From: a virus
Lineage: Duplodnaviria; Heunggongvirae; Uroviricota; Caudoviricetes
Reading direction: 5' to 3' (one strand)
IMG/VR virus record: IMGVR_UViG_2713896773_000003
Coordinates: 1-20,639 of that record
DNA: 20,639 bases
Part shown: one piece after another, positions 2,475-6,310 of the stretch
How positions within the stretch are numbered: the first letter of the stretch is position 1
Layout: every line of letters starts with the position of its first letter
The notes under the pieces: model-generated
What the model saw: the letters and a program-made list of their open reading frames with translations, nothing else
Databases searched by the model: none
What the model was told of the DNA's origin: nothing
Made by a program: the position numbers and the translations under genes

Positions 2475-3114
2475 ACCATCCCGCCGTAAGTGCAAAGTAT
2501 GCGGTGAATACTTCGTGCCGAAATTCCACGACATCCGGATCCGCTGGTGCTGCCCGGAACACGGCGCAATCCTCGCAATGGAAGAGCGTGAAAAGGAGAA
2601 GGTGAAAGCCGAGGCTAAGCGCATCAGGGAGCAGAAGGAAGCCGAGAAGGAAGGGCGCAAGCGCCGTAAGGCCAAGCGCGAGTCACTCAAGTCAAAATCT
2701 CAGTGGGATAAAGAGGCTCAATCGGCCTTTAACCGCTACATCCGGATCCGCGATGAAGGTAAGCCATGTGTCAGTTGCGGCAATCCACTCATCGGCAAAA
2801 GCAATTACCTGACTGGCAGCGCCATTGACGCCAGCCATTACCGTTCACGTGGCGCTGCCTCACACCTCAAATTCAACGTGTTTAACGTCCACTCCGCTTG
2901 CACCCGCTGTAACCGGCAGTTGAGCGGTAATGCTGTCGAGTACCGGATCCGCCTGATTCATCGCATTGGCCTTAAGCGCGTAGAGCGGCTCGAAGCTGAC
3001 AATGCCCCACGCCGGTTTGACGTTACCTACCTGAAGCGCGTGAAAGCAATTTTTTCCCGCAGGGCCAATGCACTGATGAAGCGCCGTCAAAAACTACAGG
3101 AGAGTGCAGCATGA
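2467..3114 (+). CDS. ninG: NinG/Rap-like recombination protein (Holliday-junction and branched-DNA endonuclease family)
   Basis: GAGGAGG (2454-2460) 6 nt before ATG. Cysteine and histidine motifs CKVCGEYF, WCCPEHG, CVSCG, DASHYRSRG and CTRCNRQLSGNAVEYRIRLI follow the lambda NinG/Rap pattern as I recall it. Lysine and glutamate-rich basic linker in the middle. Confidence 0.85.
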   Translation: MCKPSRRKCKVCGEYFVPKFHDIRIRWCCPEHGAILAMEEREKEKVKAEAKRIREQKEAEKEGRKRRKAKRESLKSKSQWDKEAQSAFNRYIRIRDEGKPCVSCGNPLIGKSNYLTGSAIDASHYRSRGAASHLKFNVFNVHSACTRCNRQLSGNAVEYRIRLIHRIGLKRVERLEADNAPRRFDVTYLKRVKAIFSRRANALMKRRQKLQESAA

Positions 3115-3752
3115 AATGCAAAGTTGAAGGTTGTGAGCGTGAATGCAAACACTACCCAGGAAAGGGTATCTGTCAAATGCACTACTTCCGAATGATGCGC
3201 TACGGGACCTACGAACTCACAAAAAATGGTAAAGGGAAATTCAGGCATAAAAATGCGAAGGGATATCAAATGCTCAAAATTCCTGATCATCCACTATCAA
3301 TGGCGAATGGCTGCGTTTATGAGCACCGAAAAGTTGTTTACGACCGCTATGGAGAAACACTTCCACCATGCGAAAAATGCGGCAAGAAGGTCACATGGAA
3401 AACCGCGCATATTGATCACATTGATGAGGTTGTTGATAACAATGCGGACTCAAATCTTAGGGTGCTTTGCCGAGCGTGTAATGTCATGCGATCTCGAGTG
3501 CATATCCCTGAGCACACAAAAAAAGGACGCACAGCCATAACTTTCAATGGCGAAACGAAAACCGCCACAGAATGGTCAAGGGACCATCGCGTTTCAGTAT
3601 CAGAAACATCCATCAAGCGTCGACTAAAAAATGGAATGAATGTAGAGGATGCGCTTTTTTCTCCCAAAGTAACCCACAGGCATACCAGGCCAAGAGGAAG
3701 AACACCTCTGTATGGTGAATATCGCGGACCAAAGCAGAAGGAGTCAGCATGA
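3111..3752 (+). CDS. HNH homing-type endonuclease with an N-terminal Cys/His cluster and a C-terminal DNA-binding-like region
   Basis: ATG overlaps the ninG stop (ATGA). Cys/His cluster CERECKHY...CQMHY. HNH core EHRKVVYDRYGETLPPCEKCGKKVTWKTAHIDHIDEVVDNNADSNLRVLCRACN (His, Asn, His with flanking CxxC pairs). Codon and base composition are visibly more AT-rich than the flanking nin genes. Confidence 0.8.
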   Translation: MKCKVEGCERECKHYPGKGICQMHYFRMMRYGTYELTKNGKGKFRHKNAKGYQMLKIPDHPLSMANGCVYEHRKVVYDRYGETLPPCEKCGKKVTWKTAHIDHIDEVVDNNADSNLRVLCRACNVMRSRVHIPEHTKKGRTAITFNGETKTATEWSRDHRVSVSETSIKRRLKNGMNVEDALFSPKVTHRHTRPRGRTPLYGEYRGPKQKESA

Positions 3753-3865
3753 ACCACACCGACTTCCTCCGGTACCAGGCCGAAAGCGTTAAGCGCGCCT
3801 ACCTGCCGCCAGTAGCAAAGCACAGCCAGACCAAAACCCACCAGCCACAGAAGGAAGCCGCATAA
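3749..3865 (+). CDS. Possible very small ORF (38 aa) coupled between the HNH gene and the Q-like gene
   Basis: ATG 3749 overlaps the HNH stop (ATGA); its stop TAA 3863-3865 overlaps ATG 3865 of the next gene (TAATG). No motif recognised. The overlaps suggest translational coupling, but such a short ORF could be chance. Confidence 0.3.
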   Translation: MNHTDFLRYQAESVKRAYLPPVAKHSQTKTHQPQKEAA

Positions 3866-4674
3866 TGAACCTCGAATCAATCGCTAAATACTTTGCGCCT
3901 AAATCACCGATGTTCAGTGACTCTCCTCGCGCAACCGCATCAGACAGTCTCACCGGCACTGACGTTATGGCGGCGCTTGGCCTTGCTGGCCACAAGTGCG
4001 GGTTTGGTTTCGATCTTTACCTCTCGAAAATCGGCATTAGCAGCCCAGATATAGCACTGGAGAGACTCTATGAGCAGGCACGTAAGTTATCAGGTAAATT
4101 CAGAGCACTGTCTGAACTCGATGAATCAGCTCGGTCAGGCGTGCTTAAGGTTCTCTGCGCTTTTGCATACCAGGATTATTCAAGAAGTGCTGCCAGCACT
4201 CGAAAATGTGATTGCTGTGATGGTGGCGGATTTACAGAGGCGCAAGTGTTTACCAACAAGGTCTCATACCCATGGGGGAAACCGCCTTACTGGTCGAAAA
4301 TGTCGCGTGCCGTTCGCCCAAGCGACTGGGAGAGCTGGACACAGGCGCGTGAGGTGGTGCGAGTTAAGTGCAAGCCGTGTAACGGAAAAGGCGTTATCAG
4401 CAATTCGTGTCGCTGCCATGGCAAAGGTAAGGTGCTGGACAAGGCAGAAAGCGATCGCCAGGGCGTTCCAGTAATGAAAGCCTGCGACCGCTGCGGTGGT
4501 AGAGGTTACGCCAGGCTTAAGTTCTCAACGGTAATTGAGGGCGTTAATACTGTTGCGGAGATAAAGAAAACGGCGGCATATGAGCAACTTCAGCCGCTAT
4601 TTGAGGAGTTGGTCGCCGAATGCCATAAACAGGAGTCTATGGCTGATTCCATTCTCTCAAAAGTAACGAGATGA
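3865..4674 (+). CDS. Putative late-gene antitermination protein Q-like, with four CxxCxGxG zinc-finger-like repeats
   Basis: Last gene before a long non-coding region containing promoter and terminators and the lysis cassette, which is the canonical Q position. Repeats CDCCDGGG, CKPCNGKG, CRCHGKG and CDRCGGRG suggest zinc binding. Family assignment is by position and from memory that some Q-type antiterminators are zinc-binding. Confidence 0.55.
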   Translation: MNLESIAKYFAPKSPMFSDSPRATASDSLTGTDVMAALGLAGHKCGFGFDLYLSKIGISSPDIALERLYEQARKLSGKFRALSELDESARSGVLKVLCAFAYQDYSRSAASTRKCDCCDGGGFTEAQVFTNKVSYPWGKPPYWSKMSRAVRPSDWESWTQAREVVRVKCKPCNGKGVISNSCRCHGKGKVLDKAESDRQGVPVMKACDRCGGRGYARLKFSTVIEGVNTVAEIKKTAAYEQLQPLFEELVAECHKQESMADSILSKVTR

Positions 4675-4716
4675 AAATAATTTTCCCTAATGTTGAAAAT
4701 ATATAGGAAATAGGTA

Positions 4717-4745
4717 TTGCATTTCGCGGAAAAACTGGATAGATT
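4717..4745 (+). promoter_or_regulatory. Candidate sigma70 late promoter (PR'-like): -35 TTGCAT, 17-bp spacer, -10 TAGATT
   Basis: TTGCAT at 4717-4722 and TAGATT at 4740-4745 with exactly 17 bp between, 40 bp downstream of the Q-like stop and about 50 bp upstream of the first terminator hairpin. This geometry fits a short PR'-to-tR' leader on which Q would act. Confidence 0.4.
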
Positions 4746-4796
4746 CATCTCTAACGCTGGGAATCCGTTCAGTCGTTCCGAAGCCAAAAAAATTCA

Positions 4797-4826
4797 AGCC
4801 CGAGGTTAACGCCTTGGGCTTTTTTT
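4797..4826 (+). terminator. Rho-independent terminator (tR'-like)
   Basis: Stem AGCCCGAGG (4797-4805) / CCTTGGGCT (4812-4820): 9 bp with one G-U pair, loop TTAACG, followed by a run of T at 4820-4826. Confidence 0.6.
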
Positions 4827-5088
4827 ATTTCTTTGTGGCCTAAATCGCTTCGAGCCAAAAAAACGCGGAGAACGACATCACCCCTCTCCGCAATAACGAC
4901 TCAATCTCATACCCGCTTGTCTTTCTTTTATCCACAAAGAGGTAAAGCCATAACTTAGTGGAAATGGTAACAGCTAAAAACTATTTGAAAAGCTAATTAT
5001 TTTTTGCATCAACTGGCTATTCTTAAGGATTGTTTAATTTTTTGCTTTCCTAGCGAGAAAGAAGCTCCGGAAACTATCAATCAATACA

Positions 5089-5113
5089 AGGCTGCCGTTC
5101 GGCGGCCTTTTTT
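5089..5113 (+). terminator. Second rho-independent terminator upstream of the lysis genes
   Basis: Stem AGGCTGCC (5089-5096) / GGCGGCCT (5101-5108): 8 bp with one G-U pair, loop GTTC, T-run 5108-5113. It sits 40 bp before the holin start. Confidence 0.6.
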
Positions 5114-5152
5114 ATTCCTAGCAACAGCACTCGCACAAAGCGAGGTGAGAGT

Positions 5153-5377
5153 ATGTATCGCATGGACAAACTAACCACTGGTGCTGCCTATGGCGCTTCA
5201 GCCGGGAGCATCCTAAACGGCATGTTGAATGCCTACAGCCCCGAGCAGTGGAACGCTATCGGCGTGCTGGTGGGTATCATCATTGCCGTAATGACGTATC
5301 TGACAAATCTCTATTTCAAAATCCGCGAAGACAACCGCCGCAGCAGGAGCCGAGATGAACCCAACGTTGAGGAATAA
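5153..5377 (+). CDS. S: Class II holin, phage-21 S-like pinholin, with dual start (Met1 and Met4)
   Basis: GAGGTGAGAG upstream. N-terminus MYRMDK gives two in-frame starts differing by a positive charge, the holin/antiholin arrangement. Two TM segments. C-terminus [17 protein letters not shown] matches my memory of phage 21 S ([14 protein letters not shown]). 3' end overlaps the endolysin start. Confidence 0.85.
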
Positions 5378-5849
5378 GCTGGTGGGTGCCATTGTTGGCG
5401 GATCAGGGGCAATCACTATTGCTGCAGTAATGCTGGGCAATGCGGATGGACTCGAAGGTCGGCGTTATTACGCCTATCAGGATGTGGTCGGCGTCTGGAC
5501 CGTTTGCGATGGGCACACTGGTACCGACATTCGCCGCGGTCACCGATATACCGACAAAGAGTGTGACAACCTGCTTAAGGCAGATCTGCGAAAGGTGGCA
5601 AGCGCCATCGACCCGCTGATCAAGGTTCGCATCCCTGAGCCAACCCGCGCCGCGCTTTACTCCTTCACCTATAACGTTGGCTCTGGTGCTTTTGCCAGCT
5701 CGACGCTGCTGAAGAAGCTGAACTCCGGTGATGTTCCGGGTGCGTGTAAAGAACTGCAGCGCTGGACTTATGCTGGCGGCAAGCAGTGGAAGGGGCTGAT
5801 CACCCGGCGCGAGATTGAGCGTGAAGTCTGCGAGTGGGGCCAGAAATGA
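5355..5849 (+). CDS. R: SAR endolysin (T4-lysozyme-like muramidase with N-terminal signal-anchor-release domain), phage-21 R-like
   Basis: Glycine and alanine-rich weakly hydrophobic N-terminus [20 protein letters not shown] (SAR domain). Catalytic E-x8-D-x5-T arrangement in [17 protein letters not shown]. Conserved [26 protein letters not shown] tail. Overlaps holin 3' end and Rz start. Confidence 0.9.
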
Positions 5850-6310
5850 GCCGATTAACCGCAATCATCTGCGCTGTCGTTATCTGCCTGCTGGTTTCCA
5901 TGGCCTGGGCCATTAACCACTACCGCGACAACGCCATCACCTACAAAGACCAGCGCGATAAAGCCACAAAGAACCTCCGCCTGGCTAATGCCACCATCAA
6001 AGATATGCAGACCCGCCAGCGTGATGTCGCTGCACTGGATGCCAAATACACGAAGGAATTGTCCGATGCGAAAAAGACCATTAACGATTTGCGTCGTGAT
6101 GTCGATTCTGGCGCTAAACGGCTGCGCATCGCCGCAACCTGCCCTGGAGTGCCAAAAGCCACCTCCTCCACCGGCGTGGATGATGCAGGAGCCCCCGAAC
6201 TTACTCCAGACGCTCGACGGAATTATTTCGATCACCGGGACGGAATCGCAACCGCTGACAAAATGATTCGCGGCATGCAGGACTACATCAAAGAGCAGTG
6301 TCTTAAGTGA
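5846..6310 (+). CDS. Rz: Rz i-spanin (inner-membrane spanin subunit)
   Basis: ATG 5846 overlaps the endolysin stop (ATGA); the track start at 5834 is an upstream GTG. N-terminal TM helix [20 protein letters not shown] followed by a charged coiled-coil periplasmic domain. Rz1 is embedded in the +1 frame. Confidence 0.8.
6066..6266 (+). CDS. Rz1: Rz1 o-spanin (outer-membrane lipoprotein), fully embedded in Rz in another frame
   Basis: Within track ORF 5988..6266. ATG 6066 is preceded by AAGGAA. Signal peptide with lipobox LALNGC, then the proline-rich stretch [14 protein letters not shown], nearly identical to the lambda Rz1 motif [14 protein letters not shown] as I recall it. 66 aa. Confidence 0.8.

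Follow-up and report, generated by a model that had tools for sequence, protein, structure and literature searches.

What protein fills the antiterminator position of a tailed phage when the gene found there encodes a set of DnaJ-like cysteine repeats? The question is raised by a 20,639-nt stretch of DNA from a virus of the Caudoviricetes (IMG/VR record IMGVR_UViG_2713896773_000003, positions 1–20,639; hereafter, the window), in which an open reading frame (ORF) at 3865–4674 on the plus strand lies between the nin genes and the lysis genes. A first-pass annotation of this DNA, made from the letters of the sequence, had placed the ORF in the position of the antiterminator Q, had likened its four Cys/Gly repeats to the cysteine-rich zinc centre of DnaJ, and had left undecided whether the product is a member of a Q family or a distinct zinc-finger regulator that substitutes for Q; as checks, it proposed a profile search and a structure prediction. 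The boundaries of the ORF, which encodes 269 amino acids, are exactly as annotated, and the genes on either side agree with a Q position: nin genes (NinG and HNH) are located upstream, while a promoter/terminator region followed by the holin, lysozyme and Rz genes is located downstream. We are highly confident that the ORF is the Q gene (gene 17) of a lambdoid phage of the phi80 type, which encodes a late-gene transcription antiterminator of the Q-lambda family, that the four motifs of the product would supply the ligands for two zinc sites in its arm, and that it would act at the late promoter pR' by an antitermination mechanism that we propose by homology.

Identity of the gene in the antiterminator position

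A protein search of phage genomes matched the product to gp17 of phage phi80 with 100% identity over all 269/269 residues (JX871397.1 / AFV29194.1). The phi80 coding sequence is annotated as 'late transcription antitermination protein; 17; similar to lambda Q', and both the gene and its family are thus already known. In the profile search, the protein reaches 118.7 bits with the Pfam model PF03589 ('Antitermination protein Q'), far above that model's cut-off of 26.7 (E=1.3e-34), whereas the DnaJ cysteine-rich profile PF00684 remains below its own cut-off. The PHROG profile phrog_127 ('anti-termination protein Q-like') matches the phi80-type Q from end to end (E=1.5e-92). In the Protein Data Bank (PDB), the protein matches the Q-lambda chains 7ubm and 7ubn (7ubm_Q, E=2.7e-47), with the alignment falling into two blocks: query residues 1–112 align to lambda residues 1–114 (E=7e-30), and query residues 182–269 to lambda residues 118–207 (E=2.3e-14).

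Structure prediction gives the same answer. The AlphaFold2 model, computed from an 82-sequence alignment with a mean predicted local distance difference test score (pLDDT) of 78.6, superposes on Q-lambda and is predicted to have the Q-lambda fold, that is, a helical body with a helix-turn-helix (HTH) plus a zinc-ribbon arm. Q-lambda is also its best Foldseek match (7ubn_Q, E=1.8e-12, template modelling score 0.74 when normalised to the target). The protein belongs to the Q family and is of the lambda type; with its family membership settled, the first of the two possibilities entertained by the first-pass annotation holds, and the second does not.

PF03589 corresponds to the Q-lambda family, which is separate from the Q21 (PF06530) and Q82 (PF06323) families; while these share with it the regulatory role and the gene position in lambdoid phages, they are unrelated protein families (PMC9388147). 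Neither was matched in our Pfam scan at E up to 1, in which only PF03589, PF00684 and PF24254 were listed. With lambda Q, the type member of PF03589 (PDB 4MO1 and 7UBJ–7UBN), the phi80-type protein has in common the family, the fold, the gene position and the promoter layout, as well as a zinc ribbon with two Cys/Gly motifs and a C-terminal HTH body.

The best conserved part of the protein comprises residues 1–44 (3865–3996, plus strand), 32 of which (73%) are identical to lambda Q, with G39 kept and V6 replaced by I. On the strength of this identity and of the model, the segment is the likely counterpart of the torus/nozzle segment of Q-lambda in the RNA-exit channel. The N-terminal 44 residues of Q-lambda fold upon NusA binding into a torus that narrows the channel, and form a helix-loop-helix at residues 1–11, 12–31 and 32–42 (PMC9388147); the phi80 Q model, in which predicted helices at 3–10 and 31–44 are separated by a loop, agrees with this arrangement. 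At the opposite end, residues 215–269 (4507–4671, plus strand) make up the Q body's C-terminal half, the counterpart of the lambda Q HTH region, and here only 35% of the residues are identical between the two proteins. Judged from sequence, this divergence of the HTH half and the differing promoter spacer described below would fit a different DNA specificity. A 2004 study by Guo and Roberts is said to have had the DNA-binding regions of the lambda and phi80 Q proteins as its subject.

Four Cys/Gly motifs and an inserted module

All four Cys/Gly strings reported in the first-pass annotation are present on the plus strand: motif 1 at residue 115 (CDCCDGGG, nt 4207–4230), motif 2 at residue 169 (CKPCNGKG, nt 4369–4392), motif 3 at residue 182 (CRCHGKG, nt 4408–4428) and motif 4 at residue 207 (CDRCGGRG, nt 4483–4506). 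Their description as four evenly distributed CxxCxGxG repeats, however, is accurate only in part. Three of them (residues 115, 169 and 207) are canonical, motif 3 being a CxCxGxG that is one residue shorter, and, since consecutive motifs are 54, 13 and 25 residues apart, 'evenly distributed' is wrong. The Cys/Gly pattern itself is far beyond chance: among 200,000 shuffles of the protein, none contained at least two CxxCxGxG motifs, and a single motif was found in 573. In an alignment of 117 members (116 relatives plus phi80 Q), seven of the eight cysteines do not vary at all (C115, C118, C169, C172, C184, C207 and C210), while C182 is kept in 116/117; lambda Q has only the motif 3 and motif 4 pairs. 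The CxC form of motif 3 is the commoner version, found in most of the long-form homologues, and is a conserved trait rather than an error.

What had been overlooked at first is that lambda Q carries two CxxCxGxG motifs of its own, CRDCHGTG at 118 and CGRCKGVG at 144, in its zinc ribbon, which is the 'arm' formed by residues 114–152 (PMC9388147). The stretch from motif 3 to motif 4 aligns with these two motifs and has the same 23-residue Cys interval (C184–C207), and the hairpin enclosed by them is recognisably like that of lambda (HGKGKVLDKAESDRQGVPVMKAC vs HGTGRAVDIAKTELWGRVVEKEC). C182, C184, C207 and C210 align with both lambda Cys pairs and are the predicted zinc ligands, although the first knuckle is CxxC in lambda Q and CxC in phi80 Q. 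Residues 182–214 (4408–4506, plus strand), with a modelled strand-helix-strand at 189–206, are therefore best described as the lambda-type zinc ribbon, or Q arm, in which motifs 3 and 4 would form a zinc ribbon as they do in lambda Q. Because lambda Q carries two such motifs in its ribbon, two of the four repeats belong to the normal Q-lambda arm and, as far as the alignment tells, only motifs 1 and 2 are extra.

Motifs 1 and 2 are located in an insertion relative to lambda Q of roughly 65 residues (residues 113–181; 4201–4407, plus strand), a putative second zinc site. The insertion coincides with the split in the Q-lambda alignment, and in the multiple sequence alignment it faces a gap in lambda and P22; lambda Q has neither the two additional Cys pairs nor the long beta-hairpin of phi80 Q. 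Both structural models place 12-residue strands at 123–134 and 157–168 and, connecting them, a loop that contains two short helices, with motif 1 just ahead of the first strand and motif 2 just past the second. In the models, this layout is most likely a second zinc ribbon, in which C115, C118, C169 and C172 would clamp the base of the long beta-hairpin (residues 123–168).

How widespread the module is can be seen from a survey of 50 near-full-length representatives of 50%-identity clusters: 31/50 have at least four Cys pairs, and 4/50 have exactly two, the number found in lambda. In most representatives, motifs 2 and 3 are spaced 13 residues apart (range 11–15), and motifs 3 and 4 mostly 25–26 (range 23–28). 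Motifs 1 and 2 are 14 to 107 residues apart, which makes the intervening hairpin look like a hot spot for insertions (relatives P0121–P0270). The short forms keep only the motif 3+4 unit; their first knuckle, which is CxC in P0156 and P0219 and CxxC in lambda, P0159 and P0201, aligns with phi80 motif 3 in all of them. Since the short forms retain only motifs 3 and 4 and the distance between motifs 1 and 2 is so variable, the latter two look like a separable unit. Taken from these sequences, the arrangement would be a tandem one, with motifs 3+4 as a self-sufficient zinc site and motifs 1+2 as a separable second site, and not a DnaJ-like nesting. In the survey the four-pair form, presumably a two-zinc form, is the family majority, with lambda and P22 appearing as a reduced form. 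In one relative, P0126, motif 1 takes the variant form CPDPDC.

In lambda numbering, the module of phi80 Q is inserted at residues 114–117, and lambda Q contacts the beta' zinc-binding domain through residues 110–112, 117 and 122–126 (PMC9388147). The insertion thus lies inside the beta'-contacting stretch, a position from which it might reach RNA polymerase or upstream DNA; such a contact is speculation. As a tentative suggestion, which we consider possible but doubtful, the extra module may have a contact partner of its own, be it upstream DNA, a repositioned sigma region 4 or the beta' zinc-binding domain. The two-module Q that prevails in the family would then load onto RNA polymerase unlike lambda Q. 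The family arm as a whole may be an offshoot of the DnaJ/anti-TRAP zinc-finger fold with changed connectivity. A literature search for Q proteins described as having a second zinc module, or one that resembles DnaJ, returned nothing relevant, though such a description may exist.

The four cysteines of the module are invariant in the 82 aligned sequences together with G120, F129, K132 and G174 (in the larger alignment G120 and G174 are kept in 116/117). This conservation, the prevalence of the four-pair form among the near-full-length representatives and the location of the insertion within the beta' zinc-binding-domain contact stretch argue against module 113–181 being a neutral insertion that is tolerated in a permissive arm loop and has no contact of its own with DNA, sigma or RNA polymerase. 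We regard such neutrality as unlikely, even though lambda and P22 function without the module, the hairpin loop (135–156) is poorly conserved in the consensus and relatives have anything from about 14 to 107 residues separating motif 1 from motif 2.

The resemblance to DnaJ that had been noted from the Cys/Gly repeats is real at the level of the motifs and weak beyond it. PF00684 scores 24.0 bits, under its cut-off of 32.7 (E=4.9e-5), the NCBIfam DnaJ and anti-TRAP models give E=0.01–0.7, with the DnaJ models far below their cut-offs, and phmmer comparison with DnaJ chains gives E=1.1–2.2. DnaJ fold matches in Foldseek are marginal, with an rmsd of 8.8 Å to DnaJA2, and neither a J domain nor DnaJ_C was matched in the Pfam scan of the Q protein. 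In relatives, motif 3 is either CxC or CxxC and the Gly positions vary. With the DnaJ Cys-rich domain (PF00684, e.g. PDB 1EXK) the arm shares the repeated CxxCxGxG, four Cys pairs, probably two zinc sites and a weak local resemblance in sequence and fold; phi80 Q differs in that one of its repeats is CxCxGxG, a long hairpin separates motifs 1 and 2, and both the J domain and the DnaJ C-terminal domains are absent. We have accordingly ruled out membership of the DnaJ cysteine-rich family, on the grounds of a profile score below cut-off, the lack of a J domain and the marginal fold matches. The zinc-knuckle unit may share a distant common origin with that of DnaJ.

In DnaJ the zinc centres are nested, with repeat 1 pairing with repeat 4 and repeat 2 with repeat 3 in a V-shaped hairpin fold. 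Were the Q arm a true DnaJ-type Cys-rich domain with the same nested centres, lambda Q would have arisen by a deletion fusing motifs 1 and 3. While in a global pairwise alignment phi80 motifs 1 and 3 each take up a part of the first lambda motif, the unit of motifs 3 and 4 and the lambda zinc ribbon are collinear, equal in length and similar in their hairpin, and it is exactly this unit that the short forms keep, CxC variants included. Similarly, while motifs 2 and 3, being 13 residues apart, recall the closely spaced DnaJ motifs, the motif 1–2 segment is predicted to be a self-returning hairpin which, with its length of 14–107 residues, fits a self-contained unit. For these reasons nested centres seem to us quite improbable despite the PF00684 match and the presence of PF00684 among the precomputed Pfam domains of many homologues, and the connectivity in phi80 Q is most likely tandem (1+2, 3+4) rather than nested (1+4, 2+3). 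A distinct non-Q zinc-finger regulator or chaperone-like protein in the Q position, for which only the DnaJ motif likeness and the weak NCBIfam matches would speak, was rejected on the full-length homology to lambda Q and is barely credible: this homology extends outside the Cys motifs to the first 112 and the last 88 residues, the sequence equals that of the annotated phi80 Q, and the Pfam and NCBIfam scans produced no J domain and no clear homologue family other than Q.

The late promoter and the genomic setting

The phi80 record also annotates pR', a Q binding site and terminators downstream of gene 17, and we placed these features on the window by subtracting 136 from the locus coordinate. 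Window positions 3769–6141, which include pR', the terminators and the lysis genes, are 98.3% identical to phi80 DNA. On the plus strand, pR' consists of a -35 element TTGCAT (4717–4722), a 17-nt spacer with the annotated Q binding site (4724–4730) and a -10 element TAGATT (4740–4745). We aligned the region with pR' of lambda and P22 and with that of a Klebsiella phage, the Q of which is 77% identical. The layout of lambda pR' is copied downstream of the phi80-type Q, whereas the spacer sequence differs; in the Klebsiella phage the lambda-like layout is kept and the promoter region has hardly changed. Just downstream of the -10 element there is a candidate sigma70-dependent pause element (4753–4761, plus strand), in which a -10-like AACGCT (4753–4758) is followed by GGG; it is identical in the Klebsiella phage, and its lambda counterpart, AACGAT-GGG, occupies the same place and has an established role in sigma-dependent pausing. 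The intrinsic terminator tR' follows at 4796–4831 (plus strand; 11-bp stem with 6 GC pairs and a T-run; annotated in phi80). A second intrinsic terminator (5088–5119, plus strand; 9-bp stem and a T-run), which is entered as a putative terminator in the phi80 record, is located just upstream of the holin gene; a terminator scan called both. The first genes of the late operon, encoding holin, lysozyme and Rz with an embedded Rz1, occupy 5153–6310 on the plus strand, as recognised by the Pfam families Phage_holin_2_1, Phage_lysozyme and Phage_lysis and by the phi80 annotation.

By homology to lambda, Q would bind its site in the spacer of pR' (4717–4745), where it would encounter an RNA polymerase that sigma70 retains at the pause element (the -10-like AACGCT), and would then dock on the polymerase. 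Together with NusA, the N-terminal 44 residues would fold up as a ring and constrict the RNA-exit channel, with the result that terminator hairpins are blocked and the polymerase may read through tR' and the 5088–5119 terminator into the lysis and structural genes. When RNA polymerase is not modified by Q, tR' would end a short pR' leader RNA.

Several points count against this interpretation of the protein and its promoter. The confidence of the model is moderate on average, with pLDDT at 69–77 across the insertion; the proposed pairing of motifs 1+2 and 3+4 draws on homology and predicted secondary structure; and CxC in place of CxxC at motif 3 is unusual for a zinc knuckle. The assignment of pR' draws on the phi80 annotation and on the alignment, and a simple sigma70 consensus scan of 4600–5200 called no site.

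The pR' leader RNA would span about 4752–4831 (plus strand; about 80 nt), ending at tR', and is nearly the same in the Klebsiella phage, although the two Q proteins share only 77% identity. It folds better than shuffled sequences (z=-2.96) and could be a small RNA; other pR' leaders are reported as small RNAs in PMC7547250 and in a preprint on the Pas sRNA. An Rfam search of the leader and the intergenic region gave no match at gathering score (isrJ reached 23.8 versus 37 bits, and the trpB motif 33.2 versus 59), and a tRNA search of the same DNA gave none. Between tR' and holin there is a non-coding stretch of roughly 320 nt (4832–5152); in the related Klebsiella phage, tRNA-Asn and tRNA-Ser genes are found in this interval.

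The phi80-type Q gene with its promoter is present in 102 of 5,426 complete E. coli genomes, among them those of the common cloning strains DH5alpha and DH10B, both of which carry phi80dlacZ. The window phage as a whole differs from phi80: it has an HNH endonuclease gene upstream of Q where phi80 has a Lar-family gene, and its structural genes resemble those of HK639. It is a mosaic: mEp213/mEp043 is matched at 98.7% by the start (within 1–1274), phi80 is matched by separate segments that lie between 1066 and 6141, unbroken from 3769 onwards (98.3%), and 8122–20639 matches the structural genes of HK639 at 87%. The HNH gene (3111–3752, plus strand; 213 amino acids; PF01844, E=1.6e-7) is located between ninG/rap and Q, and its stop codon overlaps the start of the next ORF (ATGA). 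Phage SfV likewise has an HNH endonuclease gene immediately upstream of its Q, and among the 5,426 E. coli genomes none has the HNH gene of the window adjoining the phi80-type Q.

The ORF between the HNH gene and Q (3749–3865, plus strand) encodes 38 amino acids and overlaps both neighbours, with ATGA at its start and TAATG at its end. It has no Pfam match, and from 3769 onwards it corresponds to a stretch that carries no annotation in the phi80 record; related phages have in its place a small YlcG-family gene that overlaps the start of Q. In the record of phage P22 (536–801, minus strand), an antisense promoter and a terminator are annotated inside gene 23, the P22 Q, as repressing Q translation.

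Meaning for the Q-lambda family

As a gene call, the result adds nothing new, since the Q of phi80, a classic laboratory phage, is already annotated. Its modest interest lies in the family: lambda Q, which alone among the members has had its structure solved, supplied the textbook structural model, and it appears to be a reduced, minority form. Most members seem to carry a second, strictly conserved four-cysteine module beside the surface that touches RNA polymerase, which poses a question for how Q is loaded. The second module represents a variation within a well understood mechanism.
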